This document shows, piece after piece, positions 319-43,800 of a stretch of 64,000 nt of DNA. The notes beneath the pieces are model-generated. The model was given only the letters and a program-made list of their open reading frames with translations. It was not told where the DNA came from and ran no database searches. A program made the position numbers and the translations under genes. The number at the start of each line of letters is the position of its first letter. The stretch's first letter is position 1. Source of the stretch: Kiritimatiellia bacterium (GTDB taxonomy: Bacteria; Verrucomicrobiota; Kiritimatiellia; RFP12; UBA1067); assembly GCA_024405395.1 (NCBI GenBank), contig JAKSOW010000001.1:6277-70276 (forward strand), given 5' to 3'.

Positions 319-332
319 ATTCCGGGACGACT

Positions 333-6048: not shown

Positions 6049-6078
6049 TGTCTTACATCCTTTTTCAATTTTACTAGC

Positions 6079-6612: not shown

Positions 6613-6639
6613 GATCAGTTCTCCTTTTTTTGTAAGAAA

Positions 6640-7719: not shown

Positions 7720-9551
7720 TAATTCCCTTCTTTCGTAACCAAATCTAACCAATTCGGTATGTAGAGTTCTGCCCCTGGAACCTGTTCAACCCAAGAAGGT
7801 GGCAAATCATAATCAGAAGACAACCGCCCTGCCAGACGACCAAGAATAACCCGCACCTCCATTTTCTTCTGTAAAGACTCATCTATTTTTTTCCATGAGA
7901 ATGGAGGAGAAAGGAAAATCAGTTTTTCAGGGATGCAGAGACCATGATCCTGACGGTTAAACGTTTCAAGGTATTCAGCACCTCTCCATCCAGCAAGTAC
8001 TAACGTTCGTGTCTTATCTGGCAAAGCCGAAAGTTTCCGCACGAACGCAATTGCTGGGGCATTAGTATGGGACTGGAAAAACTGTCGCATCTCCTTGCCT
8101 TGATAAATCTGATATCCGCCATCAAGAACTGCGTCATCGCCTACAATCCACACTTTGGGATCTTCTCCGTTAAGCAAAACGTGATCTGGGAATCCCTTTA
8201 TGGATACCAACTGTCTGCAATTCCTTCCCCATATACCTACCACTACAACGGCACCAAGAGAAATAACCACAGCCATACATACAGCCACCAAAATCACCCG
8301 CCGTCCAAAAGGTCTAAAATCTTTGAACCCAGAAACAAGTGAAAATATCGGCAACACCCAAAGAAGTGGCTCCTCCAACTCATGTGTGAAACAGGCTGAT
8401 ACACCAAAAGCCACAAAGACCGCAAACGGCAAAGATTTCTTGTCGCGAAACGCCCACACCGCAAACAGGAACATGAAAAACAGCCAAGCAAACACATAGC
8501 CAACACGCTCCATACAACCCATCTCTACAAGCCATGTCAAATGGCTATTCTGCAGCTCAGACACCGCCAACGGCGTATCAAAGGACTGATACCAGTCAAC
8601 ATAGGCACGACCCCCATTACCATAGCCCCAACCTGTGGGAGCATCCGCCATCATTCTCGGTACAGCAGCCCACATTGTTCGCCGATCGGTGCGGGGGTCT
8701 TGGGCAAGAAAACCGCTGGTAAACCTAGTTCCACCAAACTTAAATGCAATGCCACCAAGGGCAACCAGCAGCAACAACGCTACCAGAATTCTGCGGAACG
8801 AAAATAAATCCTTGAATTCCCTAAAATGTGGTACAATAAGGGAAACAATACCCAAAACGAATCCGAGAAGACATCCCCGCGACTGCGTAAGGAACAAGAA
8901 GACCAATGACGCCAAGAAAGGGATGACGGCAACCATCCCGAGAATTAACCGACGACCATGAAACAACACCAATGCCACGGATAGGAACATCACCGACAAC
9001 ATCATAAAGATGGCTGCCGTCTTGTTTGGATTGATGAATTCCCCAAAAGGAATCCGGAACCGACCTGATTCTTTCCAGATGTCTACAGAAGTGACATCAT
9101 CCAACATTCCTCTTTGTTTCTGCTCCCAAAGCTTAGGTATGGCTTCATCCGACTGTACAGGCTTGATGCGCTTAACAACCATCTGCTCCCGATCGAAGGT
9201 CATCTTGCGCAACGTTCCATTATAAAACTCAAATTCCGTCTGTCCCCCAGTAAAGTCATCACGCGTACGAACGGTTGTCCGCCCATATTCAGAATAACCT
9301 TCCCACGGATCTTGGGCGAGTAAACGGGAAGGATTCTCCCGATCACGATACAAATAGCGAACCGTTTGGTCGGGTTGGGTCAATCGGCAAACCTCATAAT
9401 TTATCGGGACGAAAGTGGATTCAACTACATTAGTACCCCATTTAGTTGGGTCAGTTCGAAACCCATAGTAGGCGAATGACACCCATGACTGCAACAGAAC
9501 TATTGCAATCATAAAAATACGACGAATTGACCATGACTTAAACATATTCAC
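7719..9551 (-). CDS. polytopic membrane protein, O-antigen-ligase/Wzy_C-like core with extra N- and C-terminal soluble domains
   Basis: The central region has about 10 hydrophobic helices. It includes FLTQSRGCLLGFVLGIVSL, which resembles the Wzy_C/WaaL signature region. A ~170-aa region separates the first hydrophobic segment from the core, and a ~190-aa soluble tail follows it. The start is GTG 9551 or ATG 9545, 2-8 nt after the upstream stop. Confidence 0.7.
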   Translation of the reverse strand: MNMFKSWSIRRIFMIAIVLLQSWVSFAYYGFRTDPTKWGTNVVESTFVPINYEVCRLTQPDQTVRYLYRDRENPSRLLAQDPWEGYSEYGRTTVRTRDDFTGGQTEFEFYNGTLRKMTFDREQMVVKRIKPVQSDEAIPKLWEQKQRGMLDDVTSVDIWKESGRFRIPFGEFINPNKTAAIFMMLSVMFLSVALVLFHGRRLILGMVAVIPFLASLVFLFLTQSRGCLLGFVLGIVSLIVPHFREFKDLFSFRRILVALLLLVALGGIAFKFGGTRFTSGFLAQDPRTDRRTMWAAVPRMMADAPTGWGYGNGGRAYVDWYQSFDTPLAVSELQNSHLTWLVEMGCMERVGYVFAWLFFMFLFAVWAFRDKKSLPFAVFVAFGVSACFTHELEEPLLWVLPIFSLVSGFKDFRPFGRRVILVAVCMAVVISLGAVVVVGIWGRNCRQLVSIKGFPDHVLLNGEDPKVWIVGDDAVLDGGYQIYQGKEMRQFFQSHTNAPAIAFVRKLSALPDKTRTLVLAGWRGAEYLETFNRQDHGLCIPEKLIFLSPPFSWKKIDESLQKKMEVRVILGRLAGRLSSDYDLPPSWVEQVPGAELYIPNWLDLVTKEGN

Positions 9552-9553
9552 GA

Positions 9554-10195
9554 TTATTCGTCATCCTCTTCTTCTTGATTTTCCTCAAGCCATTTCTGAG
9601 CGGTGGCAACATTTTTCCAATCATCACCCGTCACGTATTCATAAGCTTCTTTCGCCGCCGCACGCGCAACACCATTACTGCTGGCAATAAGATGAACGAT
9701 GATATCAATAGACAAAGTAGGACGCAGATCGTTCAGTTGAAATGAAATTGATTCCATAACTTCACGATCACGAACCAACATCATGGTCTCCTCAATGAGT
9801 ACACCCTTTTCATGTTCATCCTCAATATCATTAATTGCCGAATCCCATTGATCCTGTGCCTCTGATCTAACGTCTTCATCGCGGTCAAGCAAAAACGGCA
9901 TCAACGCCCGTACAGATTTTTTTCCAAACCAGCCAATGGATTCAACACAACGCAAGCGAACTACTGCATTTTTCGAATTCTTGAGCTTTTCTACATAAGA
10001 CAATGCCTCCTGAAAATCTTCCTTCTCTACAGCATTCTCAAGATCAGAAACCTGCTTCTCTTCGCTAACCGTACATTCTGATGTCTCTACAACATTCTTT
10101 TGCATTTCCTTATCGGGTTCAGACTTGCCGCAACCGCTAAGTAGACAAACAACAACAGCAATACCGACTATATTCTTCATTTCTATCACCTTCAT
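9554..10195 (-). CDS. HEAT/PBS-lyase-like repeat lipoprotein
   Basis: The ATG at 10195 overlaps the upstream TGA (ATGA). The N-terminus MKVIEMKNIVGIAVVVCLLSGCGK contains the lipobox LSGC. VRLRCVESIGWFGKKSVRALMPFLLDRDEDVRSEAQDQW is HEAT-like. The tail is acidic. It is a paralog of 11688..12614. Confidence 0.75.
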   Translation of the reverse strand: MKVIEMKNIVGIAVVVCLLSGCGKSEPDKEMQKNVVETSECTVSEEKQVSDLENAVEKEDFQEALSYVEKLKNSKNAVVRLRCVESIGWFGKKSVRALMPFLLDRDEDVRSEAQDQWDSAINDIEDEHEKGVLIEETMMLVRDREVMESISFQLNDLRPTLSIDIIVHLIASSNGVARAAAKEAYEYVTGDDWKNVATAQKWLEENQEEEDDE

Positions 10196-11685
10196 GGCAA
10201 TGAGGCCAGAACTGTAACGTTGCCTTGACCCTGAATTTTTATTGTTCCTGTGATTTTGCCAGAATTCAAATCCAGACTTAACAAACCGATGACCACATTT
10301 TTCCCAGATTTCCTGAAAACAGGCAACCAGGTCGTTACGCAATCGGTACTCTCAACCAACACACTCTTGGTATTGATGCGAAGTCTATTTGGAAACGTTC
10401 CCTTTATTGAAACTACACCTGTCTTCGCTGCCGCCTTCTTCATTACCAACTGTAGTTCTGTTTCATTTTCAAGGATAATCTTACGGTCCATAACATAAAG
10501 ACTCGCAGGAGACTTTGCTGTCCAAAGTGTATGAGAGAAACAAATTCTACGCGACACACCATCTGTAGATATGAAATTTCCTATCAGCTGCCCTTCGGAT
10601 GTAACAGCTAACAAAAATGAACATCCCACTCCCGTTCCTGAAATTTCCAATATACCATCCGATGACAAACTTTTCCACCCTTTAGAAACCGCCTTCAACT
10701 TGTTATCGACACCATCATACTGGATTTTTGCCTGTCCTTTCTCCGAGAGTGTTAAGGATATTATTCCTTGCATCTCGCCATCCTCTGACAATATAAATCC
10801 ACTTGTCTTCACCGACTTTGTGATCGTGAAGGCAGAACAGACTTTAGAAACTGGAACCACAGTAATCGTTAGGGTAAATGTCTGACTGCCCTTCTCTATT
10901 CCTACATCGCGTTTTTCAGCCAGAATCCAAGAACTGGTAAACGTACCTGCTTTAGTTGGATTTCCTTTAAACAAAACCCGTTTAGAGACAGAATCATAGG
11001 ATACCTTTATTCCCGAAGGGAGTCTTCCAGAAGCCTTCTTTACCTGCACCATCCCACCTACCGTATTGGTTACTTGAAAGTATTCCTCAAAAGGAATATG
11101 CTGAACTGACTCAACAGTTGCATTCCGAAGCGCAAACGCCGGCATTGGCTGATCCATAGGTGCCGATGGTCTAGGAGAATCTAAAGTAGAGGAAAATGCA
11201 AAGCCCGAATCAACCAAAACCTTCTCAACTGAACTAGTCAACTGCAACGCTAGGGGCCCAAGTTTCACCGGCATGTATCCATCGCGACCAACAAAAGCTC
11301 TCTCAATTATCGTTCCATCTGTTTTTGGCCAATAGATGCAAAACAACGGCAACTCATTAATCCACGGATTAATAGATCGTATGAATTTAAGTCCTGCTTT
11401 TGCATCTGAATCGCCATCATGACATACGCTCATTATTATGCGGTGGTCATAAAGCCATTCCTGAAAATCAGCACTATCTAGTGCTGACTTCATCTGATTG
11501 CACATTGGACATGAGCTACGTGCCCACAATAACAACATAGGAGTGCATGTCTCGTTAGCATAGCTAAGACCCTTGGAAAACCCCGCATTCCACTCACCTA
11601 AACATATCTCTCCCCTAGAAAAAGAAAAAGCCCATACACTGAAAACTAGAATGATATTAAAAGACAGTACCAAAATTTTTTTCAT
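10192..11685 (-). CDS. exported thioredoxin-fold (CxxC) + Ig-like domain protein
   Basis: The signal peptide is MKKILVLSFNIILVFSVWAFS. The CxxC context is MLLLWARSSCPMCNQMKSAL. ELPLFCIYWPKTDGTIIERAFVGRDGYMP is conserved with the paralogs. The Ig-like segment is GRLPSGIKVSYDSVSKRVLFKGNPTKAGTF. The start lies 2 nt after the upstream TAG. Confidence 0.8.
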   Translation of the reverse strand: MKKILVLSFNIILVFSVWAFSFSRGEICLGEWNAGFSKGLSYANETCTPMLLLWARSSCPMCNQMKSALDSADFQEWLYDHRIIMSVCHDGDSDAKAGLKFIRSINPWINELPLFCIYWPKTDGTIIERAFVGRDGYMPVKLGPLALQLTSSVEKVLVDSGFAFSSTLDSPRPSAPMDQPMPAFALRNATVESVQHIPFEEYFQVTNTVGGMVQVKKASGRLPSGIKVSYDSVSKRVLFKGNPTKAGTFTSSWILAEKRDVGIEKGSQTFTLTITVVPVSKVCSAFTITKSVKTSGFILSEDGEMQGIISLTLSEKGQAKIQYDGVDNKLKAVSKGWKSLSSDGILEISGTGVGCSFLLAVTSEGQLIGNFISTDGVSRRICFSHTLWTAKSPASLYVMDRKIILENETELQLVMKKAAAKTGVVSIKGTFPNRLRINTKSVLVESTDCVTTWLPVFRKSGKNVVIGLLSLDLNSGKITGTIKIQGQGNVTVLASLP

Positions 11686-11687
11686 TG

Positions 11688-12614
11688 CTACTCTCCTTCA
11701 GAATTTTGCCCTTCTTCTTTTGAAATCGTTTTATCAAAATTTTTTCTCTCTGGTATATCGTACTCTGTGTCGTTTATGATTTTCATACCAGAAATATCTA
11801 TTTCTGGGTCAAATACCTCTGGGTGAAGAGATGCTCGATAGACTGGTATGTCATCAGATTCTTCTGACAAATCAATGTTCTCATTGACCCAGGCTTGTGC
11901 AGCCTCAAACGTCGTATACTCCTCCCCTGTTAGAAAAGAATAAGACTCAAGTGCTACATCCACAACATCTGGATTCTCACTATTAATCAAGGCTACCACT
12001 GACTCAATCGCCGTAAAAGTTGATAGTTCATTCAAATTAAAAGCGATATCTTCCAACATATCACGGTCTTTAATCACACCCATTGTAGCTTCAATAATTG
12101 TAGCCTTAACACGCTCATCTTCGACTTGACCTAAAGCAGATAACCAAAGATCTTGTGCAGCATCACGAACATTTTCATCCTGATCAACAAGAAAAGGCGT
12201 CAACTCAGGAAGGGCTTCCTCATTAAACCAACCAAGTGCCTCAATGGCTCTAAGGCGAACAATCTCATTTGTGGAATTTCCCATTAGTTTTGCAAGTTCT
12301 TGAACTGTAGTGAAATCCTCGGCATTAAGAGCTTTATCAACTTCATCAAACAACCGTCGATCCTGTGGCGAAACCTCATCAGGAATTTGAGATCGATCAA
12401 CTTTTCGTTTTTCCCGCCTTAATGTATTAACTTTAATGCTCGTATCCCTTATCTCAACTAGTTGCTTAACATTTGCCGGTTTGCGCCTTGATATACGCAT
12501 TCCAGTTCCAGATCTATTAGTTTGCCCCTCAGTCTCTTTATTGGTTGAAATATTGAAAATGAAAATGGCTATCGTGAATAAAATTACTGAAACTAAAAAA
12601 ATCTTAATTTTCAT
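11688..12614 (-). CDS. HEAT/PBS-lyase-like repeat protein with N-terminal membrane anchor
   Basis: The ATG at 12614 lies 1 nt after the upstream TAA. The N-terminus is MKIKIFLVSVILFTIAIFIFNIS. VRLRAIEALGWFNEEALPELTPFLVDQDENVRDAAQDLW aligns closely with the 9554 gene product. The tail is acidic. Confidence 0.75.
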   Translation of the reverse strand: MKIKIFLVSVILFTIAIFIFNISTNKETEGQTNRSGTGMRISRRKPANVKQLVEIRDTSIKVNTLRREKRKVDRSQIPDEVSPQDRRLFDEVDKALNAEDFTTVQELAKLMGNSTNEIVRLRAIEALGWFNEEALPELTPFLVDQDENVRDAAQDLWLSALGQVEDERVKATIIEATMGVIKDRDMLEDIAFNLNELSTFTAIESVVALINSENPDVVDVALESYSFLTGEEYTTFEAAQAWVNENIDLSEESDDIPVYRASLHPEVFDPEIDISGMKIINDTEYDIPERKNFDKTISKEEGQNSEGE

Positions 12615-12615
12615 T

Positions 12616-13692
12616 TTACTTCTTCCTTTTACGCGTTGGGAAAACGATACCTTCTCCATAAGGATATTTGATAATCGCTTTCTTACGCAAATCGCGAATA
12701 GTATTCCCGATAACCTCTTCCTGTCGTTCCTTAATCAATTCACGTTTTATGAATTCAGGATCCTCGTCAAATATTATGGCTGTTCGCCAAACAATGCGGG
12801 CAAGATGGCGAGCAAATACTGTTCCATCACCATTCACATCTTCTTTATCGCCCAAAAATTTTACTATCTCTATCCCATCATCGGTTGTCATAACATCTGT
12901 AATCTCACCAGGCTTTAAACATACTATGCTCTCCCAATAAACTGGGGCTTCCATTGAGAAGTCATCAGCCGTGCAAAAACCCAAGTCACCTCCTGGATTT
13001 TTTTCTTCATCCTGTGAAAAATCATCAGCCAGCTCAGAGAAATCTGCACCAGCCCTTGCCCTTGCCAAAACGTTAGTTGCTTCTGCATAAATGTGAATAT
13101 TTGTCTGCACCATACGCGCATTGTATGCAATCGTTTGCGCCACTTGATTTGAAATTGCTTCGGCAGATACCAGCATTTGAGTTGCCAATGCCGTCTTAAT
13201 GTAGTGCTGGCTCCATAAATCCAGCTCTAGCATCTCTTCAATCACATGACAATTAACACCTTTATCAAAGGAACAAAGTTGTTTGAAAGACATTCCTTTT
13301 TTACCATAGCTTAACGCATATTTTTCCTGAAGCTTCAACCTTTCTTCTTTTGTTGGCACAAAATTCATCCGTTTTGCTTCACTTGCCAACAATGCCATCG
13401 GAAAAAAGTTTTGATATTCTTTCTCCCGAAACCGCGTCTTTAGCATTTGAAACTTATGATCTGCTATAGTACCGACTTTCGCTTTGGCAAAACTCAATTT
13501 TGCCATAATTTGACCCTCATATTGTCCCTTGGTCAACTTTATACCATTGACTTCTACAAGCACCGAGTCAGAGTTGAGGCTACTATATGTTTCTCTCGTG
13601 CCTTTCGCACCATAAACATTGTTTATCCCGAAAGTAAGAAACAACAAAACTATACGAACAATTTTAAATGGAGTATAAGTTTTCATTTCCAC
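12616..13692 (-). CDS. exported SurA-N/parvulin-type peptidyl-prolyl cis-trans isomerase
   Basis: The N-terminus is signal-like (IVRIVLLFLTFGINNVYG). The PpiC/parvulin signature region is GGDLGFCTADDF...LKPGEITDVMTTDDGIEIVKFLG. The preceding helical region resembles the SurA/PrsA N-terminal chaperone part. Confidence 0.8.
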   Translation of the reverse strand: MEMKTYTPFKIVRIVLLFLTFGINNVYGAKGTRETYSSLNSDSVLVEVNGIKLTKGQYEGQIMAKLSFAKAKVGTIADHKFQMLKTRFREKEYQNFFPMALLASEAKRMNFVPTKEERLKLQEKYALSYGKKGMSFKQLCSFDKGVNCHVIEEMLELDLWSQHYIKTALATQMLVSAEAISNQVAQTIAYNARMVQTNIHIYAEATNVLARARAGADFSELADDFSQDEEKNPGGDLGFCTADDFSMEAPVYWESIVCLKPGEITDVMTTDDGIEIVKFLGDKEDVNGDGTVFARHLARIVWRTAIIFDEDPEFIKRELIKERQEEVIGNTIRDLRKKAIIKYPYGEGIVFPTRKRKK

Positions 13693-13705
13693 TGCTATCT
13701 CAAAT

Positions 13706-13744
13706 GTAAAAAGCGGGAGGAAGCACTTTCATGCATCCACCCGC
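13706..13744 (-). terminator. candidate rho-independent terminator after the 13779 gene
   Basis: On the minus strand, GCGGGTGGA pairs with TCCTCCCGC (one T:T mismatch) and is followed by TTTTT. A second perfect hairpin, TTATTCGCC-GAAG-GGCGAATAA, lies at 13757..13778 directly after the stop. Confidence 0.45.
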
Positions 13745-13778
13745 CTTGTCTCAATTATTCGCCCTTCGGCGAATAACC

Positions 13779-14657
13779 TTACTTAGCATACGCAGGCATA
13801 TAGGCAGCAACACCCTTAGTACCATTGGCAATCTTCTTGCTGTACTTCAGCTTCCACGTACCATACGCAGCAAGCAGTTCAGAACCAGCAGATTCGGTAA
13901 GATCGTCACAAACCGCACCGAAATCATCGCAGATACCAACAAGACCAGCCCAGTGATAGTCACACTCACGAATGGTAGGATCACCCGTCACCGAACCGGC
14001 AACACTACCAGAAACGTTCTTGACAACACCCTTCTTGACATCAAACGAACCAAGACCAGCGAGCTTAAGGTCGTAATCACTGAAATCAGCCGTTTCAGCA
14101 TTAAAACCACCTGCCCCATCCGAGACATTACGCCAAGCATAGTCAATCCAACCCATGTCACCATTCTCATCCTTGGCGTACACCTGCTCCTTACCAGCGA
14201 AGTCCCAGACCATGGAAACCTTGTTGGCCTTCTTCTCGTAACGATAAACCTCATCGCCAACAGCCGACTTGAAGTCATTAGCCTTGTATTTCTCAACAGT
14301 CTTACCGCCTTCGACAACAGTCTCCGTAGTGAGGTAATCACCAATCACGTGCTGGAAGCCCTTATCGGTACGCCAAATCACGTACTGGGCACCATCAAAA
14401 TCGCAAGCCGACTTGCAGTTCCAAATGATACCCTTCAGCGTACGCTTACCATTCTTGTAGTAGGAGACACACGTTTTCGTCTCACCCAAGCACGCACTAC
14501 CACCCTTGCACTTAAGGGTCTTGGGAGCGAGCGTCTTAAGCTTGATCGTAAGATCATAAGCCTGACAATCCGAACTCGGATCAATCGTGCAGAGGTCACC
14601 TGCAAAAACACCAATACCAGCAGCTGCAACAGCGGCAGCAATCATCAACTTCTTCAT
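13779..14657 (-). CDS. exported Cys-rich protein, unknown family (paralog of 5266..6048)
   Basis: The best start is the ATG at 14657 (MKKLMIAAAVAAAGIGVFAG, a signal peptide), preceded by an A-rich/GGA region. It shares motifs with the 5266 gene (see that entry). The overlapping plus-strand ORF 13731..14732 is judged an antisense artefact. Confidence 0.75.
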   Translation of the reverse strand: MKKLMIAAAVAAAGIGVFAGDLCTIDPSSDCQAYDLTIKLKTLAPKTLKCKGGSACLGETKTCVSYYKNGKRTLKGIIWNCKSACDFDGAQYVIWRTDKGFQHVIGDYLTTETVVEGGKTVEKYKANDFKSAVGDEVYRYEKKANKVSMVWDFAGKEQVYAKDENGDMGWIDYAWRNVSDGAGGFNAETADFSDYDLKLAGLGSFDVKKGVVKNVSGSVAGSVTGDPTIRECDYHWAGLVGICDDFGAVCDDLTESAGSELLAAYGTWKLKYSKKIANGTKGVAAYMPAYAK

Positions 14658-18479: not shown

Positions 18480-19574
18480 TCAGCTGATGCGCAGCGGCAT
18501 CATAACGTACAGGAACGGCACCGAACACTTGATCAATGCCGGCGAAGAGCCGTTCTTGAGCTCGATGTAGACTTCATCCTCGTCAATGGCCTTCAGCGGA
18601 TCCATCACAAACTGGGGATTGAAGACAATCTCGATCGTCTCGCCGTCATACTTGATCGGCACCGTATCACGGGCCGCACCCACATCGGCGGCGGCTGACG
18701 CCACGGTGAGGCGATTGGACTCAAACGTGAGACGCGTAGAATTGGACTCATCCATCGTCATGACGCTGACGCGGTCAAGGGCCTCCAGCAGAAGCTTGCG
18801 CTCCACGGTGACGCGCTCGGTGCAGCCGGTGGGGATGACCTGACGATAGTTGGGATAGACATCATCCAGAAGCTTCGAGTAGATCTGCGTGTCGCCCAGA
18901 TTGAAGGACACCTGCGAGCGTTCCACGGTGACGCGCACATCGCCATCGGACGAAAGCGAACGCTGAAGCTCGGAGACCACCTTCGTGGGGAGCACGATGT
19001 CCTTCTCCGCATCGGCGGGGAATTCGACCTCATGCTCGACCAAGGCCAAACGCCGCCCATCCGTGGCCACCATGGTGAGCTTCGCGTCCTTGAAGCTCAT
19101 CAGAACGCCCTTCAGGGTCTTGCGCGTATCGTCCTGCGAGGCCGCGTACGAGGTCTTGCGCAGCATTTCGCGAAGCGCCATCTGCTTGATGATGTAGGCA
19201 AACGTGCCGGAATCCTTGGGGAGCTGCGGGAAGTCGGCGACATTCATGCCGGCGATGTTGAACACGGCGGAACCCGCCGACACAACCGCCTTGTCCTCCG
19301 CATCGGTCTCGAGCTCAACGGGGCCTTCCGCCGCCTTGGCGATCGTGGCCGCCAAAAGCTTCACGGGGAGCGTGGTCGCGCCTTCAGCCAGCACTTCGCA
19401 GGGAACGACGCTGCGGATCGAAATGTCAAGATCCGTGGTGGTGAGGAAGAGCTGCTTGTCCTTCGCCTCGATCAGCACATTCTGGATGATCTGCAGTGTA
19501 CCCTTTGACACCACGATGTTCTGAACCTTCTTGAGGCCTTCCAGAAACTTGGAACGTATAATCCTGATTTTCAT
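18480..19574 (-). CDS. dnaN: DNA polymerase III beta sliding clamp
   Basis: The 364-aa product starts MKIRIIRSKFLEGLKKVQNIV...LFLTTTDLDISI, a typical DnaN N-terminus. The gene lies immediately downstream of dnaA. Confidence 0.95.
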   Translation of the reverse strand: MKIRIIRSKFLEGLKKVQNIVVSKGTLQIIQNVLIEAKDKQLFLTTTDLDISIRSVVPCEVLAEGATTLPVKLLAATIAKAAEGPVELETDAEDKAVVSAGSAVFNIAGMNVADFPQLPKDSGTFAYIIKQMALREMLRKTSYAASQDDTRKTLKGVLMSFKDAKLTMVATDGRRLALVEHEVEFPADAEKDIVLPTKVVSELQRSLSSDGDVRVTVERSQVSFNLGDTQIYSKLLDDVYPNYRQVIPTGCTERVTVERKLLLEALDRVSVMTMDESNSTRLTFESNRLTVASAAADVGAARDTVPIKYDGETIEIVFNPQFVMDPLKAIDEDEVYIELKNGSSPALIKCSVPFLYVMMPLRIS

Positions 19575-19860
19575 TGCATGCTCCTGACACCATTTCGCCG
19601 GACAGTCCCGCTGTCAGCGATTCCTAAGATTGTACCTAATATTCCTTCTAAAGTAAAGAATGAATAATACTAATATTAGGTTGTTCAATAACTCCAATAA
19701 CTTCTTCAAGTACTGTAAAATCAAGGCCTGCGTGACTTTTCAGCTGTTCATTTCCCATTCAGTCGGATGTTCAGCGCTGTTGATGATTCGGCGGGCTTTA
19801 GACAACTGTCCACAAGTGGATGGGTTCTGCACAACTTCTCTACAGGGGATGAACAGATTA
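19575..19860. promoter_or_regulatory. dnaA-dnaN intergenic region with AT-rich tract and DnaA-box-like palindrome (possible oriC part)
   Basis: This 286-nt gap has an AT-rich run at about 19621-19725. CTGTCCACA (19806..19814) matches 7 of 9 positions of TTATCCACA. It abuts AGTGGAT to form TCCAC-AA-GTGGA. TGAACA/TGTTCA motifs are also present. Confidence 0.35.
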
Positions 19861-21297
19861 TCATTCGAGGACGTCGGAGATCTGGCGGCCCAGCTTGGAC
19901 ACAATCTGGCCGATTTCCTGCTTGAGGTCGGCCTCGACGCTGATGCGCTTCTGGATCTGCTGCGAACCGTAGAAAATCGTGGTGTGCTTGCGGTCGAAGG
20001 CCTTACCGATCGTCGGCAGCGAATCCGTGGTGAGCTTGCACGCCAGGAACATCGCGACTTGGCGGGGCTGGACAAGGGCCTGGGTGCGTCCGGGCGCCTT
20101 GATGTCCTTCACCGTGACGCCGTAGTGCTCCGCCACCGCATTGATGACCGCTTCCGGCGTAATGCTCTTGATTGTCACTTCCTCCTCTATCATGTCCTTG
20201 AGGAGATATTTCGAGATCTCGATGGTGAGCGGCGTATCGGGATTGACGTCCATGAAGGTGGTTACCCGGTTCAGGGCACCTTCAATGGCCCGCACATGCG
20301 AACGGATGTTTTCCGCAATGTAGTTGAGGATATCGTCCTGGATCAGACGATGGCGGGCCTGCATCTTGGACCTGAGGATCGCCAGACGCGTCTCATACGA
20401 GGGGGATTCGATTTCCACCACCATGCCCTGCTGGAAGCGCGAGATCAGCCTGTCCTCCAGACCTCCCTGGAGCTCCTTTGGCGCCTGGTCGCAGGTCATG
20501 ACTATCTGCTTGTTGTACATGAGCAGACTGCTGATGGTGTTGAAGAATTCCTCCTGGAAGCTCTTCTTGCCGACGATGAACTGAACGTCGTCGATGAGCA
20601 GAAGATCGTATTTCCTGTAGCGGGCGCGAAACGCGGGAAGCGCCGCCCCGGCGAGCGCATTGACGTATTCGTTGAGGAACGTCTCGGACGTGATGTAGCA
20701 AACCGACGCCTCGGCATTATGCTTCATGACATAATGGCCGATGGCCTCCATCAAGTGCGTTTTGCCCAGACCTGTGCCGCCCCAGATGAAAAGCGGATTG
20801 TAGGCGGTCCTTCCAAGCCCCTTCGCAACGGCGGTAGCCGCAGCATGGGCGAAGGAATTTGACGGGCCCCTCACGAAGTTCTCGAACGTATAGTTCTCGA
20901 GGAGCGGCAGAGTGGAAGGCAGTACACGCGCACGCCGAGGCGTCGGAGCTTTGGGAGCCGGCTTTTCCGAATTGGTCTGAACGGGAAGAACGGGCGGAAC
21001 CTCTACGGTTTTCTTGGTTTCCTCTTTCTTGATGACCTCAAAGACCACTTTGATGCCATCCCCCAGACCTGCCGCCCGAATCGTCTCCTCCAGAGCCTTG
21101 GCGTAGAGCCCCGTGAACCAATCCCTCTTCATCTCCGTGGTGACGCCGATCCTGAATTCGCTGCCCACCAGACTCTGAGTGAGGAACTGAGGAGAATGCA
21201 GTTCCCAGCGATTGATTTCCTCAGTCGTTTTCAGGCTCATTCTGTAGCTGGAAGCGATGGCTTGCCAGACAGATGTAAGGTTGCTTGTTTCTGACAT
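19861..21297 (-). CDS. dnaA: chromosomal replication initiator protein DnaA
   Basis: The Walker A motif is GGTGLGKTHLMEAIGH. The Walker B region is LLLIDDVQFIVGKK. The C-terminal DNA-binding signature is FDRKHTTIFYG. Confidence 0.95.
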   Translation of the reverse strand: MSETSNLTSVWQAIASSYRMSLKTTEEINRWELHSPQFLTQSLVGSEFRIGVTTEMKRDWFTGLYAKALEETIRAAGLGDGIKVVFEVIKKEETKKTVEVPPVLPVQTNSEKPAPKAPTPRRARVLPSTLPLLENYTFENFVRGPSNSFAHAAATAVAKGLGRTAYNPLFIWGGTGLGKTHLMEAIGHYVMKHNAEASVCYITSETFLNEYVNALAGAALPAFRARYRKYDLLLIDDVQFIVGKKSFQEEFFNTISSLLMYNKQIVMTCDQAPKELQGGLEDRLISRFQQGMVVEIESPSYETRLAILRSKMQARHRLIQDDILNYIAENIRSHVRAIEGALNRVTTFMDVNPDTPLTIEISKYLLKDMIEEEVTIKSITPEAVINAVAEHYGVTVKDIKAPGRTQALVQPRQVAMFLACKLTTDSLPTIGKAFDRKHTTIFYGSQQIQKRISVEADLKQEIGQIVSKLGRQISDVLE

Positions 21298-23875: not shown

Positions 23876-25843
23876 TTAGTGATGTCCCCTTTTGATGATG
23901 ATGGCCAGAACCGAAATGTCGGCAGGATTGACGCCCGGAATGCGGCCCGCCTGTGCCAAAGTCTCCGGACGATACTTCTTCATCTTTTCCCGGCTCTCAT
24001 ACCTGATGGCCGGACACTTGTCGTAATCCAGCCAATGGGGAATCTTGATGTTCTCGTCGCGCTTGGCCCGTTCGGCGGCAATGTTCTCCTGGCGAATGTA
24101 GCCGGCGTAGTGGTGACGGATTTTCACCTGTTCAACCACAGGATCAGGAACCTGAATGGAAGAGCCGCCGATTTCGATCTCGGCGTTAGGGTTACCGTCA
24201 GGCTGAACAGACAATACGCGTTTCAGCTTTTTGTTGTCCTGCTCGATGGTGTTGATCATATCGGCAAACGATTTGGTTTCCTCCCGAATGACCTTCGGCA
24301 GAATGCCTACCCTTTCCGCTGCTTCCTGCAGGCGGTAGCGGGCATTGTCCTGACGCAGGATCAGGCGGCGCTCGGCACGTGATGTGAACATGCGATAAGG
24401 TTCATCGGTTCCCTTGGTGACCAAGTCATCGATCAATACGCCAATGTACGCATCCTGGCGGCTGATCACAAGCGGGCTTTCATGCTTGACCTTGAAGGCG
24501 GCATTTATTCCCGCCATGATGCCCTGGGCGGCAGCTTCCTCATAACCCGTTGTCCCGTTGATTTGGCCGGCAAAGAACAGACCGGATATACGCTTGGATT
24601 CCAGCGAATGCGTCAGCTCACGGGCGTCAATTCCATCATACTCAATGGCGTAGGCATACGCAAGGAATTCGGCGTGCTCCAGACCTGGAACGGAATGGAC
24701 CAGTTCTTCCTGAACCTGACGAGGAAGAGAGTTGGATAGACCATTAGGATAGATGATCTGCCCTGCACGATCTTCGGGTTCAAGGATGACATGATGACCA
24801 TCAACACCCGCGAATCTGACTATCTTATCCTCAATCGATGGACAATACCTGACGCCCGTTCCACTTATCATTCCACCATAAAGAGATGAATCCTTAAGAT
24901 GCGAACGTATGATTTCATGGCTGATTGGCGTTGTATGGGTTGCCCAACAGATAGCTTTAGCGGAATTCAAAGGCCACGGAGCGAACAAATCCGCATTGTT
25001 CCACGTGGAACAGTCCGTTGAACTGGATTCTGATGCGGAATTGGCATTGTTCCACGTGGAACAAAGACCAGAAATGGGTTCAGATGAAGCTAAATCATGG
25101 TTGTTCCACGTGGAACAATTGATTCCGGGTGTTAAACCATGGGAAAGGAGGTATCTGGTTCTGAGGGAGAAATAAGGCGGATTATCCTCTCCTTCCTGCG
25201 GTGTACACACCGAAAAGTCGCAGCTTGATGCCTTTAAGCGTGGCGGTGTACCTGTTTTAAGCCGAATAAGCTGAAAACCGAGTTTGGAAAGCGAATCGGA
25301 TAGCTGATTGACGGCTGGCCGCCCATCTCCGCCAGATTCCGTGCATTCCTTGCCAATGAATATCCGCCCTCGCAAAGCCGTTCCGGAGGTTATCACCAAA
25401 GCCTCACAGTTGATCAGTCCGTTCTTCTCGGTTCTGATTCCGGTTACGGTGTCATGATTGGTTATCACCTCAAGGGCGGCATCCTCGATCACGGTCAGGT
25501 TTTTGGTGCTGTTGACAACCAACTGCATGCGCCGTGTGTATTCGCTCTTGTCGCATTGTGCTCGTGTTGCCTGCACGGCTGGACCACGGCTCAAGTTCAA
25601 TGTCTTTTCCTGGAGCGAAGTGAGGTCGGTGTTGAATCCCATTTCGCCGCCCAACGCATCCAACTCAAACACCAGATGACTTTTGGCAAGTCCGCCAATG
25701 GAAGGATTGCAGGGCATACGCGCAATGGCAGACTTGAGCCCCGTAACCAAAAGGGTGTCAATGCCCATGCGTGCAGCGGCCAATGCCGCTTCGGCTCCGG
25801 CATGGCCTCCACCAACCACAACAATTGAAAAATCTGTTTTCAT
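23876..25843 (-). CDS. mnmG: tRNA uridine-5-carboxymethylaminomethyl modification enzyme MnmG (GidA), with an internal repeat insertion
   Basis: The FAD motif is [19 protein letters not shown]. Other conserved stretches are [12 protein letters not shown] and [19 protein letters not shown]. The segment between PPYFSLR and ICWATHTT is about 68 aa long. Confidence 0.95.
24997..25117. repeat. three perfect copies of the 16-nt palindrome TGTTCCACGTGGAACA inside mnmG
   Basis: Copies lie at 24997..25012, 25048..25063 and 25102..25117, with spacings of 51 and 54 nt (in frame). Each encodes CSTWNN in the mnmG frame. The sequences between the copies are unrelated to each other. Confidence 0.9.
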
Positions 25844-25933
25844 TGCAGATATTATAACATGCTTTAAGACAAAATATAAGAGATAACAGATAAAAGATAA
25901 ACGAGGGCCTCTGCTTTTCTCGATGAAATCTTT

Positions 25934-26174
25934 AAGACAGGATTTACAAGATTAACAGGATTTAGAAGCCTGACCGATTGAGATAATTAATGTGGCGATT
26001 GCAAGTCGTGGTCGGTGGGTTCATTGAAACCAGTCCTGTCTGTTTAATAGGCGTAGGTTCAGGTAGGACAACATTGACGATGCCGCCGCTAATGAGATAT
26101 TGCAGTATCCTCAATAAATAAAGCAACATCGGGGAAATCCTGTTAATCCTGTTAATCCTGTCGGAAATCAGGAT
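25934..26174. repeat. inverted clusters of ACAGGATT(T/A) / (A/T)AATCCTGT 9-mers flanking ~165 nt
   Basis: ACAGGATTT lies at 25937 and 25955. Three contiguous copies, AAATCCTGT-TAATCCTGT-TAATCCTGT, span 26135..26161. AAATCAGGAT follows at 26165. The arms GACAGGATTTACAAGATTAACAGGATTT and GACAGGATTAACAGGATTAACAGGATTT (reverse complement of the right arm) are near-identical. Confidence 0.7.
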
Positions 26175-27191
26175 CTGCTCTGTCAGTCCAGTTCTCAGTT
26201 AGTTTCCGTTAAGATTTTGACTGAAAAGCCCGCCAGTAGAATTCATCAGTCAAAAACCTGAATCGCCTAAGCAATCAAGGAAAGGGGCTGGAAAAATCCC
26301 GGAATCATGAGCGTCATATTCACCTCGACAAAGGAGTGCGTGATTTGAGAATTGAGGGCTAAAAGGCGAATGTGTCTTGTCCAATCATATCGAAAACATC
26401 GCGATTGAATTGTCCGGAAGGGTTCATTCTCAATCGTTTTCCGTGGCCGCCAGATGGCGGTTTCCGTGTCCTTCCATGGTCTTCTACCTGGCGAAACAAC
26501 ATTATTCAACATATCAAATAACTTCTGGCTTTTTGGGAAAATGCAGATGCATTTGCCATACTGGAGATCCTCTCGTTCCGCTAAAACTTCAATGATCAAA
26601 TGATCCGATGAGATTCACTATCAACAGTTATTCACATTTATGAAACGAGCGATTATGCGACAAACAGAAGAGGCCCAAGTACGGGAAACCTTGATTTTAC
26701 GGGCTTTTATGCTTGTGCCGAAAAAGTCAACAGAAAGATATGCAAAATACTGTCATAATTATGAACTACTTATGAACAGGTTTTAGGCAACGGTTCAGAA
26801 CTATTGACAGGTGATTTCTGCAATGTAATTCACATTATCGGCCCATAAGCATGGAAGGGCCGAATGTTATGACGGAAACGGAAAGGAAACCCCTTATGAT
26901 CTGGGGTGTGGTCGTCAAAACGGAACTCACCGTAGAGCATCATCCCCTGCGGCAAGGCTCAGTACCTGAAGCATGGGGATTTGGTATCAGAAGCAGGAAT
27001 TCGTAGTATCTGAGTCAAATGAAACGGTATCTGAGATGAATTCCATTGTCTGGGTAGGATTGCAGTACATGTTCCATGACTGTTTCATTTGGAATGTCGG
27101 AAAAGGGGCTGAAAGCGTCTCATCTCAGAGTGTAATGCGTTATGCGTCAAATTGGCGGCAACGGAGCAGTTGCGAATACAACAAATTAAAA

Positions 27192-27221
27192 TTGTATACA
27201 TATTAAAGGATATGCTATACT
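27192..27221 (+). promoter_or_regulatory. candidate promoter TTGTAT-18 nt-TGcTATACT for the beta-helix gene
   Basis: The extended -10, TGCTATACT, lies at 27213..27221 within an AT-rich tract. An AGGAGG RBS lies at 27241, and the ATG is at 27253. Confidence 0.4.
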
Positions 27222-27252
27222 TTAAGCATCGTCAACCGCAAGGAGGAAAGAA

Positions 27253-37853: not shown

Positions 37854-40800
37854 ATGGGAAACTATGGTCTCAAATCCGGTTTGGGTGGCCGCCTTGCGGC
37901 TGCCCTCTGCCTGTTTGCGACGGCGGTGCACGCCGCCTCCGCGACCTTTTCCCATGATGCCAATGCCACGGTGGCCGATTCCCGGCGCCTGACGGAGGCC
38001 ACCACGATTGCCGTCGCCAAGGATGCGCGTGTCGTCTACTCCGGCGTGTTGTCGGGGCCCGGCTCGTTGCGGCTGACGGGTGGTGGCACGCTGGTGCTGA
38101 CGGGCGCCAACACGTTCACGGGCGGCGTCACGGTTGAGGCGGGCTACCTCGTGTGCTCCAACGCCTTGGCCCTGGGCACGGGCACGGCAACCATCATGGG
38201 CCAGCGGGACGACTATTCGGGCCCCTGCGAGATTGGCTTCTGGGGTGTTGGCCCCGGCCGTTCGGATTCGGTGACGTACGCCAATCCGATTCGCGTGACG
38301 GGCTCCTCGACGGCCCTCTATCCGGCGCTCTACTTCTTCGGGCAGAACTGCGTCCTGAACGGCAGCGTCACCGCCGAGCAGGACCTTGTCTTCTACGAAG
38401 ACCACAATGCCGCCAAATCCATCAATAGCGCCAACTGGGACCGTTATCAGCATGTGCTTTCGGCCACCTTCAACGGTCCGGTGACCGCCGCCGGAATGAT
38501 CGGCTATCGCGGCATGACGCGCTGGGCCTTCAACGGCAAGGTCACGACCCCGCTTTTCCACACGGCGCTCACGCGCCCGAAACGTCCGGACGACATTGAC
38601 TCGACTGACGGCAACAACAATGCCCATGGCGCCTTCCTGCTCAATGCGGCCAACGCCATCGGCGAATTCAGGAATGCGCGTTCGCCCGTTTACCTGGGCG
38701 TGGAGAATGCGCTTGCGGGCTCGGTCCTTTCCTGGGAGAAGAACACCTCGCTCTGCACGGTGGGCTTCTTCTACAGTCAGCTTTACGGCGGCAGCTACCG
38801 CAACCAGCGTGTGGCCGGGCTTTCCAGCGTGTCGGCACCCGTGGCGGCCAGCTACGATTGGCGGGTTCATGGCGCCTCTTCGGCGAATCGGTTTGTGCTG
38901 GCGGGCACAGGCGCAGCGGCGGAGACTTTCGCGGCCAGTGCCGCCCTCACGGGATCGATGTCCTTCATTGTGGATGCGAGGCCCGACTACTCGCAGACGC
39001 TTCAAGACCGCCACCACACGTTTTCGGGCACGCTCGCCGTCTCCAACGGAACCCTGAACGTGGAACGTGGTTCGTTCTCCAATGTGACGGCGCTTGTGGT
39101 GGGCGCACACGGCACCCTGCGCCTCGACACGCCGCTCTCGGGCGGGCAGGTCTTCCCCAAGCTGTCTTCGCTGGAGATCGTGAAGGGCGGTGTGCTGGCC
39201 GTGCCCGAAACCATGCTGCTCACCACGAAGACGCTCATTGTGAACGGCACGAAGAAATCGCCCGGTCTCCATTACGCCGAAAGCGTGCCCGGCTTCACGG
39301 GGGCGGCGATAGTCTGCCTCAATGCCGACGGCTCCATGCCGGTGGTGGGCGATCTGACGGGCGCTCAGACGATCCGCGAACCGTTTGCGGCTCTGGGTGA
39401 CCGCATGTGGCGGCTTGCCGCGGGCGAGACGCTCACGTTTGAGGGAACGCTTCGCCGTGTCGAGGGCATGGTCACGGTGGTGAGCCCCAAGAACACCGCC
39501 AATCCGGCACGCGTGGTGCTCAAGGGCACCAACTCGATCGACGGGGCGCTCGTCACCACGGCGGCGGTGCTGCAGGTCTCCGGTCTGCTGGCGAACTCCT
39601 TGCGTCAGGACCAGGGCCAGGCCGCCAATCGCGGCGGGAGTGTGGTCACGGTGGATGGCTATCCGGGGGGCGGCTATCTTTTCGTCTCCAATGCCGTCAT
39701 CGAAAAGCCGGTCTATCTGCATGGCTCGGGCTATGGCATTCTGAGGAGTGCCGCCGCCACCACCACCATCCTGAAGGGCCACGTCGCCTGGCCCACGCCC
39801 TGGCCCGGCTTTACGGCGGCGAAGGATTCGGAGATCGTCTTCGAGGGCGGCTTCACGAGTGGCCACACCCTGCGCACAAACGGACAGGGCACATTCCGTG
39901 TGCGCAATACGCCGGTGACGGCCACGGCGAGCGTGGGCTGGAACATCGGCGGCGGCACCGTGGCGTTGGATGTGTGCGGCAACAAGTTCAGCTATCTGTG
40001 CGCCGGGCACTACAACGGCGACACGGCGGCGATTGTGTGCAACGCCGATCGGGCCTTTGACGTCACCGCGAACGCGGGCCTGGTGAACGGCTGCTGGTGG
40101 AACGATGGCTACAGCGGATTCTCGGTGATGACGTCTGGCTCCGGAATCGTGGACCTGAAGGGCACGGTGCAGCAGGTGAACAAGTACGCGGGCAGCAGCC
40201 GTTCGACCCTGCGGGGCGAGGCGGGCGCCCGGCTGGAGATTCTCCAGCAGACGCCGGACTCGCGGCTCAAGGCCCCCGAGCTCTACTTCGCGTCCGCGAT
40301 CGAAGGCGAGGTGACGGTGGCGATGTACGGCCCCGGCAGACTCGTCCTCACCAACCGCGTATTTGAGACGACGGGCGGATTGGAGGCCACGAACGGCATT
40401 GTGGAGATTGCCCGGGGGGCGCGTTGGCTGGGCACGGGTGACGTGACCTTGCGTGGCTCGGCCAGGCTGGTGCTGCATGAGCGCGACCAGCTGGCCCCCT
40501 CGGTGCATCTGCGGATCGGTGAGGCGGCGAAGATCGAGATTCCCGCCGGCACGTCCCTGACGGTAAAGACCGTGGACGTGTGGGATGGCACGGGCTGGCT
40601 GCCGCTGAAGACGGCCGGCAGCCATGCGGCGGGCGACGGCGGTATGCTTGCGGGATTCATCACGGGCGGCGGCACGCTGAACATTGTTGGCGAAGAGGTC
40701 GCCGCAGGCGTGGCGATGCCGCTGGAGTGGAATGTCACCTATCCGGTGGATGTGCCGTATGAGGTGGAGATCGACACGGCCAAACTTCATGCGCTGGGCG

Positions 40801-43800
40801 GCATTGCCGCCAACACGGGCTTCCGTGTGTTCGCCACCGTGGCGGGCGCCATGCGCGAAGTGGGCGTCAGCTGTCTGGCGGGACGCGTCCCCGGCAGGGT
40901 CGCCCTGCGCTTCTCGGTGCCGGCCGGGACGACGGCCCTGACGTGTCGGGCGGGCGTGGGGCGGCTGGAGCTGCTGGACGCACAGACGGCCGACAATCTC
41001 TTTGCGGGCGTGTTGGCGTCCGCCACGGGATGGGTATGCGACAAGACCGTTTCCTGTGCTGTGCGCACGAATGGTCTGTCCATCGCCTCGACGGGTGCGG
41101 GCAACTATTATGCGAAGTGCAGCGTGCCCGTGCCCGCCGATTGGCGGGGCAAGAGCGTGCGCCTGGAAATCGACGCCACGAGCGAGAGCGTGCTGCCGTG
41201 GGGCGGCTTCATCCGCCTGTGGCAGTATGACGCCAACGGCACGCGCCTGCCCGAGAGTGTCTCCGATGTGCGTTGGACGAGTCACATGCGCCCGCCGGAG
41301 AAGCTCGCCCAATATCGCGAGAATGGCCGCATCCATCCAGACTGTGCCACCGTGGAGGCGCGTTTCGAGGTGCGGGGCACGTCGACGGCCTTTGACCTCT
41401 ATGGTCTGCCGCTGGCGGATGAGGAGGACACGAAGGCCCGCCTGCTGGTTTCGCGTCTGGTGCTGCGGCGGGCGGCGGAATTGCCGTTCCCGAAATATGA
41501 CGACCGCTTCTTCTCCGCGGGCGTCTCGGGGGATGCGGGCGATACGGCGCTTCGCCTGGGCGGCGAAGACCACAACGGCTTCTTCTACGCCACGCACAGC
41601 CAGGCGGTTTGGAGCGAGGGAATGGATTCGCGTGATGAGGCGCAGAATTTCTTCCCGGCGGGAGATGGCACCGTCGAGGCGTGGTTCAGGGCCGATGCCT
41701 GGCCAAGCAAGGAGACGTATCTCTTCCAGGGGTTCCAGGGCTACTCGGCCCAGAAGTCCGCCAATGGGCGAAGCGAACTCTTCTCGTTGCGGTACACGCA
41801 TTCCTCGAAGCGCCTTTACCTTTATATGAAGGATCGGCAGAACACGGTGTTCTCAGCGCAAGCCACACAGGCGCTGCCGGTGGGCGAGTGGGTGCACATC
41901 GCCGCCCAGTGGAGCGTCAACGGCCAGGCCAGGGTCTTCGTGAACGGCAAGGAGGCGCTGGCACGCGACATCACGGGCTTCAGGCCGGTTGACCTCAGTG
42001 CCGAGCAGTATCCCGATGAGGAGATTGTGACGGAGTTCTTCCTTGGCTCGACTTCCGCCTCGGCCCGCAACACCGAAACGGCGGAGAATGCGGGCGCGCC
42101 TTTCTTCCAGGGGGCCGTGGATCAGCTGCGCGTCTCCACGGGCACGCGCTATGCGGGCGCGTTCACGCCGGCCAGACGTCATGTGCCGGATGCCGCCACA
42201 CGTGCGCTCTTCGCGTTCGACCGATCCTACGATGGCGAGTCGGGCGGCGGATGCCGATTCATCCGCGGTTCGATCCGCTCGTTTGCGGACCGTGTGCGGC
42301 ACACGCTTGACCTTGGCGGCAATGAGGTTCCGTACTGGCCCGCCGAGATCCTGCCCGAGAACGACCACCGCCAGGTCCTGAACATCGACAACTATCCCGA
42401 TCTGCCGACGGTGGACGAATTCCTCTCGGCCCGCCGAGCCACAAATGCGGTCTTCGATGTCTCCCCGGGCGCCACGTTCACGTTGAATCTTCCGGGCACG
42501 GTCTACCGCGACTACGTGGAGATCGCGAACACGGGAACATCGCCGCTGCTCTACCCCACGGTCGTCAACGCCGGCGAGATCGATCCCCGCAGCTTTGGCG
42601 ACATCCGCGACACGCTGGGGCTGGCCGAGCTGGATGATCGGGCATGCGCCAACAAGATTTTCCAGTTCGTGCTGGGCGCAAGCGACTACTTCATGAACCA
42701 CAGCGCCTTCTTTGCGCCCGGCACCGACACGCCGGGCGATGTGGAGTACCAGGCACTCATGATGCTCAACGGCTACTGCGGCTTCGAGTGCGGCCCGCTG
42801 AACAGCATGACGAAGAATCTCTTCACCTGTTCGGGCGGGCTGCCCTCTTCGCAGACGGGCGGCTATGGCCACAGCTTCGAGCAGGTGTTCTATGACGGCA
42901 AGAACCACATCTACGATCTGTCGGCCCAGAAGTTCTTTCCCGCGATGGACAACGAGACGGCGGCCTATCTTGAGGAAGCGGGCGATCAGCCGGGCATCTT
43001 CCACCGGATCGGCGGCAATCCCGACCACTTCATCCGCAAGTCCCGCCGTGGTGCCGATGCGTCTTCGCCGTCGTTCAGCGAGAAGGTGGCGATGAGCCTC
43101 AATCCTGGCGAGCGCCTGCGCGTGTGGTTCGACAATGACGGCGAAGGCAACGACCTCCAGTGCAGCAAGAGCTCCGTGCAGAACGATTCCGCCCTCCACA
43201 AGGAGAACTACGACGACCGCTGCCATGCCGTTGCGGGATCGGCCGGCAGCATCTGGCGTGTGCACCGCCACTTCCCGCACTACGGCAATGGATTCCTCGT
43301 GTACGAAGGACCGGTGGATGTGGCGAATCCCGCCTTTGCCGCCTCGACGAAGTCCTCTGCCGTCTATGCGGTGAAGAGCTGCTATCCCATCACCGCGGCC
43401 GAGTACTCGGCCAAGCTGCAGGATGGCACCTATGCGCCAATGCAGCTCTCCACCGACAGGGGCGCAACCTGGCGTGCGCTGCCGGCTGGCAAGGTGCGCT
43501 ATCCCGTGCGTGCGCGCACCGAATACCTTGTGCGGGCGATGGCAGATCCCGCGAAGGTCGTGCGTTTCTCGGCCATCACCGAGGTGCAGGTGAACGTGCG
43601 CATCTTCACGGGCGGCGTGCACGCCGGGGCCAATGCCCTGACCTTCAAGGCCAATGGCGGAGAGGCGGCTCGCGTCACGCTGGGCTGGCGTGAGCCGGCG
43701 AAGCGCCTGGAGATCCGGGGCGGCGTCTATTCGGGCACGATCCCCGGCAGCGAACGGCAGCTCGTGCTGCTTGATCCGGCCAGCACGCTGACGCTTGACG

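Follow-up and report, generated by a model that had tools for sequence, protein, structure and literature searches.

Palindromes matching chromosomal parS sites in an expanded loop of mnmG close to dnaA in a Kiritimatiellia bacterium

RESULTS

The mnmG gene of the window contains three copies of a palindrome

The window analyzed here, a stretch of 64,000 nucleotides (nt) from a Kiritimatiellia bacterium (assembly GCA_024405395.1, contig JAKSOW010000001.1, positions 6,277 to 70,276), carries within its mnmG (gidA) gene three copies of a palindrome that resembles parS, the binding site of the chromosome segregation protein ParB. The mnmG coding sequence lies on the minus strand at 23876 to 25843 and encodes 655 amino acids (aa). 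The product of this open reading frame (ORF) matches the Pfam families GIDA (1.4e-139) and SAM_GIDA_C and the MnmG chains in the PDB (2e-151 to 1e-139), and it is 100% identical to NCBI entry MCQ2389800.1, which stems from a Kiritimatiellae metagenome-assembled genome (MAG). Its similarity to the solved structures is full length and high scoring and covers the flavin adenine dinucleotide (FAD)-binding domain, the catalytic-cysteine motif RYCPS, and the C-terminal helical domain, as is the case for members of the MnmG/GidA family.

The protein differs from the known enzyme by 59 extra residues in a single loop. Alignment to 2ZXH and 3CP2, with the limits of insertion domain 2 taken from the literature (PMC12397908), places an in-frame expansion of 69 aa in that domain at 24953 to 25159 (minus strand; about residues 228 to 297). 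In Escherichia coli MnmG, the corresponding loop has only 10 residues, namely, residues 230 to 239, which are positions 250 to 259 of chain 3CP2_A after its 20-residue tag. The initial annotation of this DNA, made from the sequence alone, had put the segment at ~68 residues versus about ten in E. coli, and the structure alignment bears this out. The distance from the TGTPPR to the RYCPS motif is 129 aa in the window protein. In an AlphaFold2 model based on 30 homologs, the insert is coil with low predicted local distance difference test (pLDDT) values, but with a mean of 64.6 and values below 50 also in regions known to be structured, the quality of the model is too low to demonstrate exposure of the loop.

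All three copies of TGTTCCACGTGGAACA are located inside the insert, at 24997 to 25012, 25048 to 25063, and 25102 to 25117 (spacings of 51 and 54 nt), and each of them is translated as CSTWNN. Three perfect 16-nt palindromes with these intervals and this peptide had been reported in the initial annotation, and all positions were reproduced. The first site is a perfect palindrome of 16 bp; the second and third extend to perfect palindromes of 18 bp (TTGTTCCACGTGGAACAA) at 25047 to 25064 and 25101 to 25118. These copies are the only matches to TGTTCCACGTGGAACA with up to two mismatches in the 64 kb (chance expectation, 0.03), and the degenerate parS consensus TGTTNCACGTGNAACA with up to three mismatches finds a single further match there, which is at chance level. 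The DNA between the sites had been described as unrelated, a description that holds apart from one detail: Tandem Repeats Finder detects no tandem repeat in the insert, but likeness runs ~9 nt past one side of each palindrome, giving a 25-nt family with 84 to 92% identity. A proposed recurrence of the half-site near dnaA did not hold, as the heptamer GTTCCAC occurs 12 times outside the sites (7.9 ± 2.9 expected overall) and not once in dnaA. On the plus strand, an antisense ORF of 88 aa at 24909 to 25175 reads the palindromes as LFHVEQ three times; it is a by-product of their dyad symmetry and warrants no gene annotation.

Relatives carry the palindromes in the same loop, in any reading frame

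The best 120 protein homologs (61 to 74% identity) all have the expanded loop, with one to five copies of a short motif, which is CSTWN in 28, VSTWK in 82, and CATWH in 10 of them. At the DNA level, these motifs correspond to three types of sites: type A, TGTTCCACGTGGAACA (CSTWN); type B, TGTTTCCACGTGGAAACA (VSTWK); and type C, TGTGCCACGTGGCACA (CATWH). No examined copy of any type deviates from a perfect palindrome, and where two types differ, a change on one arm is matched on the other (for instance, TGTTCC/GGAACA changed to TGTGCC/GGCACA). Each genome uses a single site type for all of its copies, a pattern that one binding protein shared by all of them would produce. Type B sites, as seen in L001 (10716 to 11001), L151, and L154, are 18 bp long, with one extra bp per half-site.

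For comparison of the loop itself, the set of loci was enlarged by 80 further metagenome loci, and perfect palindromes of at least 14 nt were counted. In 73 control loci, the distance from TGTPPR to RYCPS is 68 to 73 aa, and the loop is free of palindromes; in 43 loci of the PVC type (Planctomycetota-Verrucomicrobiota-Chlamydiota superphylum), the distance is 74 to 320 aa, and 40 of these loci together contain 104 palindromes. The insertion spans Kiritimatiellae and Verrucomicrobiota and is no peculiarity of a narrow lineage, and the orthologs do not show at this position what had been named as one possible outcome, i.e., a conserved structured domain with diverged DNA.

The 104 palindromes are distributed over all three reading frames, with 46 in frame 0 (CSTWN, VSTWK, or CATWH), 48 in frame 1 ([LMV]FHVE[HQ]), and 10 in frame 2 (xVPRGT). 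Frames are mixed within 14 genes; L014, for example, encodes FHVEQ and VPRGT, and L067 uses all three frames. Neighboring sites lie 28 to 420 nt apart (median, 60 nt), and for 17 of the 64 spacings, the length is not divisible by three. Where an [SA]TW tripeptide is in frame, it is encoded by TCC or GCC together with ACG in 47 of 49 cases, compared with 23% (TCC), 42% (GCC), and 29% (ACG) of the respective synonymous sets elsewhere in those genes. In comparisons of relatives with 90% identity or more, conservation is 100% for the motif residues, 65 to 69% for the other insert residues, and ~95% for the rest of the protein. The sites are also concentrated in the insert: 114 were found in 16.8 kb of insert DNA, compared with 10 in the remaining 355 kb of the loci, a ~240-fold difference in density. 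This comparison shows conservation at the level of DNA rather than peptide and restriction of the sites to the mnmG loop. It upholds, through the three frames, the fixed codons, and the complete conservation of the motif, the earlier suggestion of a constraint on DNA or RNA that listed a protein-binding site among its options; the suggestion of a common dispersed repeat is contradicted by the distribution of the sites.

Copy number turns over fast, as illustrated by two proteins of 679 and 705 aa that differ by exactly one unit. The cultured strain Rubritalea profundi SAORIC-165 (L051) carries a single site within the loop and two more upstream. An assembly artifact as the source of the array is ruled out because dozens of independent assemblies share the same architecture.

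Several further features were observed in these inserts. The mnmG insert of a CATWH-lineage locus (L158, 3860 to 4553) contains a 237-nt unit repeated 2.9 times with 97% identity. Units of this type (also in P0029, P0047, P0051, and P0057) comprise two parS-like sites and GC-rich hairpins, whose translations are CGRSKLRPSR and GRDAIYCVR; the hairpins give the impression of another class of palindromic element that shares the loop. Type B inserts, otherwise not conserved, share a recurring [EK]YDNF[VI] peptide, whose DNA in L001 (10832 to 10846) is TACGACAAATTTGTT and contains the 10-bp palindrome ACAAATTTGT, so this could be another DNA-level motif. Outside the usual position, L150, L152, and L153 have FHVER where the window protein has FQLIR, 11 codons before the end of TGTPPR, and in L128 to L147, P[LMV]FHVEH replaces PP[YF]FS, 24 codons after TGTPPR. 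In these lineages, the putative parS core overlaps native, conserved codons of MnmG.

The palindrome is identical to known parS sites and occurs beside parA and parB genes in other phyla

TGTTCCACGTGGAACA has exactly the sequence of the perfect parS2/parS3 site of Pseudomonas aeruginosa and of the parS site of Pseudomonas putida, and it differs by one base from parS of Myxococcus xanthus (PMC4368675, PMC7022226). It also matches the parS consensus TGTTNCACGTGNAACA quoted in PMC7022226. Thus, the window holds three perfect copies of a 16-bp, dyad-symmetric match to that consensus.

To see where the motif occurs elsewhere, reference genomes (one per species) were scanned for two TTCCACGTGGAA cores 22 to 52 nt apart, a search for which less than one chance match is estimated. 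It returned at least 120 loci from many phyla. Among the loci listed, 54 have the pair within 1.5 kb of parA/parB (soj/spo0J) homologs, 27 have it within 600 bp of mnmG but outside the gene, and 6 have it inside mnmG; one locus belongs to the first as well as the second group, and most of the other loci represent pairs at locus ends. The queries for ParA and ParB were sequences of Bacillus subtilis Soj and Spo0J. Five of their matches were checked against Pfam, and four proved to be ParB (ParB_N, HTH_ParB, and ParB_C) and one ParA. Across genomes, the motif is therefore associated with parA-parB operons.

The pairs that flank mnmG or parAB in Bacteroidota, Acidobacteriota, Bacillota, and other phyla share the motif, a similar spacing, and the origin-region neighbors with the array described here. 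They are, however, intergenic or located at gene ends, whereas pairs within the mnmG frame at the insertion domain 2 loop were found only in Verrucomicrobiota and Kiritimatiellae among the matches listed, to which all six loci with a pair inside mnmG belong. A variant was observed in a Competibacteraceae MAG (L027, 455 to 551), where three copies of TATTCCACGTGGAATA follow each other at a spacing of 40 to 41 nt, with A for G at half-site position 2; the locus as stored includes neither parAB nor mnmG.

The array lies close to dnaA, dnaN, and the GC-skew minimum

Downstream of mnmG, the minus strand carries a gene for a Na+/H+ antiporter-EIIA protein, dnaA, dnaN, and rlmL, in this order. The dnaA and dnaN genes occupy 18480 to 21297 (minus strand; dnaA, 19861 to 21297; dnaN, 18480 to 19574) and were recognized by the Pfam families Bac_DnaA, Bac_DnaA_C, and DNA_pol3_beta. 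The palindromes thus lie 4 to 6 kb from dnaA-dnaN and near the minimum of the cumulative GC skew, which falls at ~22 to 24 kb of the window. The gene order mnmG-antiporter-dnaA-dnaN-rlmL is kept in three relatives (L001 to L003; contigs of 74 to 330 kb), and these have, like the window, noncoding DNA upstream of mnmG (1 to 1.7 kb). In the window and the related loci, the sites are accordingly few, clustered, proximal to the origin region, and not dispersed.

The noncoding region of the window, at 25844 to 27252, is a candidate origin: over 1.4 kb it contains no ORF of at least 200 aa, has a lower GC content (41 to 45%), and separates divergent blocks of genes, which are mostly on the minus strand to the left of ~25.8 kb and on the plus strand to the right of 27.2 kb. 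It contains a cluster of AATCCTGT(T) at 25937 to 26161, with five of the window's eight exact copies; three copies stand in tandem with a 9-bp period (26136 to 26161), and three are inverted (25937 to 25963). This cluster may be an origin element or a regulatory element. It is not conserved in L001 to L003. The noncoding DNA upstream of mnmG in L002 (8311 to 10000) has ~10 copies of 8-mers resembling GGACACTGAAA, and each lineage seems to have a short repeat family of its own at this place.

DISCUSSION

The palindromes as probable parS sites

A parS site is a 16-bp, dyad-symmetric sequence at which ParB is loaded; the closed ParB clamp then leaves parS and spreads on the neighboring DNA, and in model bacteria, the ParB-parS complex recruits SMC. 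ParB is loaded at parS as a dimer; binding of cytidine triphosphate (CTP) closes the dimer, spreading follows, and ParA carries out the partitioning (PMC13438810). The object conserved in the mnmG loop is a double-stranded DNA site with 2-fold symmetry through its center. It is not a peptide, because three frames are used and the codons are fixed, and it is not an RNA hairpin, because G-U pairs are absent, the center is fixed, and the same motif is intergenic beside parAB. Judging from sequence comparison, we consider it highly probable that the three palindromes of the window are chromosomal parS sites to which ParB would bind. This reading explains the data best because the palindromes are identical to verified parS sites, have dnaA/dnaN as well as the GC-skew minimum in their vicinity, and are associated with parAB across phyla. 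The array would then presumably act as the centromere of this chromosome.

If the palindromes are parS sites, they would form an origin-proximal array for ParB loading, ~4 kb from dnaA and beside the likely origin region, that is housed in the mnmG coding sequence, in an insertion domain 2 loop that would tolerate almost any peptide. Selection for binding would keep the DNA sites constant, the encoded peptides (CSTWN, FHVEQ, or VPRGT, depending on the frame) would be by-products, and the spacers would drift nearly neutrally, with copy number shifting by duplication and deletion between sites. The parS pairs that in other phyla often lie just outside mnmG may have been taken into the tolerant loop in these PVC lineages.

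A number of findings weigh against this interpretation. Neither ParB nor ParA was detected in the 64-kb window by motif regular expressions or by tblastn with the Soj/Spo0J queries, which are valid queries, as their matches elsewhere were confirmed by Pfam as ParA and ParB. Canonical ParB and ParA are also missing from ~370 kb of related PVC-type loci. A hidden Markov model (HMM) built from 58 ParB proteins and run on six-frame translations of all PVC-type loci gave a single match (5.9e-12), a 427-aa ORF downstream of mnmG in L146 (3086 to 4369) whose C terminus resembles the N-terminal domain of ParB; with hydrophobic, membrane-protein-like N-terminal segments, this ORF is no canonical ParB. 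That the genome encodes a cognate ParB with affinity for the sites is therefore an assumption. The extra bp per half-site in type B does not agree with the half-site positions that are reported to be invariant in P. aeruginosa, and because of this extra bp, at least the type B lineage would need an altered specificity; the type B sites imply either such an altered binding specificity or a tolerance of half-site spacing. In the search for a candidate origin, canonical DnaA boxes of the E. coli type were not enriched. Finally, in L117 and L152, sites lie just outside mnmG, so residence inside the gene is common but not obligatory.

Other explanations of the palindromes

The dyad symmetry through the center and the constraint at the DNA level would fit any dimeric DNA-binding protein, and the binder could be one other than the segregation ParB, such as a Noc-type paralog or a transcription factor acting on mnmG, dnaA, or the origin. 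The absence of a ParB gene near the sites, in the window as in the related loci, speaks for such a protein, as does the departure of types B and C from the usual parS. We nevertheless regard this as unlikely, since experiments have verified parS sites of exactly this sequence, the same motif stands beside parAB in other phyla (the 54 loci mentioned above), and the gene neighborhood suggests no alternative binder. A role in RNA, with hairpins in the mnmG mRNA controlling translation, stability, or pausing, had been raised in the initial annotation, and the insert RNA does fold with −74.4 kcal/mol and a z score of −4.8 relative to shuffled sequences. This score is uninformative, however, as any set of repeated palindromes yields it: the copies pair with each other, which makes the z score trivially low. 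In an RNA hairpin, G-U pairs would be permitted and the loop could vary, but all 104 of 104 sites are perfect in Watson-Crick terms with an invariant CACGTG center and no G-U pairs; Rfam returned chance matches only, none of them near the gathering score and none defining a known family, and in other phyla, the motif is also intergenic, next to parAB, where it stands in untranscribed contexts, and on both flanks of mnmG. With no support from any of these data, hairpins are a very improbable explanation.

A mobile origin is hardly more credible than the hairpins. According to this explanation, also considered initially, a selfish palindromic repeat of the repetitive extragenic palindromic (REP) or miniature inverted-repeat transposable element (MITE) kind was inserted in frame and tolerated, as are the palindromic insertions in Rickettsia genes (PMC10969869), and the CATWH lineage, with its extra GC-rich hairpin elements and the 237-nt tandem repeat in the loop, lends it some plausibility. 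Rickettsia palindromic elements (RPEs) are ~150 bp long, fall into families, and occur in dozens of unrelated genes with a conserved peptide (PMC10969869). Like intragenic MITEs, they share with the mnmG sites that palindromic DNA is in frame and translated within a housekeeping protein at positions apparently compatible with its fold. In contrast to RPEs, the mnmG units measure only 14 to 18 bp, are found in one gene, correspond to an established protein-binding site, and are not conserved as peptides. They are not dispersed: the three copies in 64 kb are all in mnmG, and the enrichment in insert DNA holds across 43 loci. In the window, many dispersed copies of 100 to 150 bp with a family consensus were not found, nor was any longer consensus, and the spacers adjoining the units are unrelated; moreover, the same gene position is occupied in two phyla, with a uniform site type per genome. 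For selection on a Cys/Trp-containing peptide motif (CSTWN) of MnmG, one can cite that each of the best 120 homologs has CSTWN, VSTWK, or CATWH. Yet, other relatives translate the same DNA to FHVEQ or VPRGT, with frames mixed within genes, the synonymous codons are fixed rather than varying under a conserved motif as in a peptide tandem repeat, and lineages that differ on one palindrome arm differ correspondingly on the other. Of the explanations considered, this one is the most remote, and we give it next to no credence.

Comparison with known parS sites and implications

The parS sites of P. aeruginosa, P. putida, M. xanthus, and B. subtilis (consensus, TGTTNCACGTGAAACA) are, like those proposed here, few, clustered, and proximal to the origin. 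Unlike them, the sites of the window type form a tandem array in a lineage-specific expansion of a single gene and are read in any frame, the array in mnmG has no adjacent parAB, and the loop is apparently there mainly to carry the sites. Types B (an 18-bp palindrome) and C (TGTGCCACGTGGCACA) also deviate from the usual parS. Nine of the ten parS sites predicted for PAO1 most likely lie within coding sequences (PMC4368675, PMC7022226), so an intragenic parS is not new in itself, and parS as such is likewise known. In the open-access literature, we found no description of parS arrays within mnmG/gidA or of any parS in Kiritimatiellae or Verrucomicrobiota; a conserved, expandable, frame-independent parS array in the loop of an enzyme, across two phyla, appears to be new. 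As translated palindromic insertions, RPEs may be regarded as the nearest analogy, from which the mnmG sites would differ in size, dispersal, and function.

A bolder proposal, which we advance tentatively and think somewhat more apt to fail than to hold, is that the main centromere of Kiritimatiellae and Verrucomicrobiota is the maintained mnmG loop and not an intergenic site, that selection on a cis-acting site has remodeled the enzyme, and that ParB specificity has diversified along with the sites. If true, the loop would carry between one and seven parS copies, irrespective of frame, whose number would turn over rapidly, and ParB specificities would include an 18-bp parS with an extra bp per half-site (type B) as well as TGTGCCACGTGGCACA (type C). 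The uniformity of types A, B, and C within genomes and their differences between lineages predict matching changes in ParB.

For the largely uncultured PVC bacteria, the array would offer a route from sequence to the centromere and hence to the origin region. It would also be a case of dual coding, in which a DNA-binding site dictates protein sequence and one palindrome is read in three frames of one enzyme, and the MnmG loop shows how much arbitrary peptide can be carried. The Cys/Trp-rich "repeats" of MnmG would be by-products, and reading them as functional motifs is unwarranted.

Other features of the window

Base composition changes along the window, from 41 to 52% GC at 1 to 14000 to 57 to 66% GC at 28000 to 64000. 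The GC-rich part contains two very long ORFs, at 37854 to 48383 (3,509 aa) and 49537 to 55584 (2,015 aa), both of which are overlapped by long antisense ORFs.

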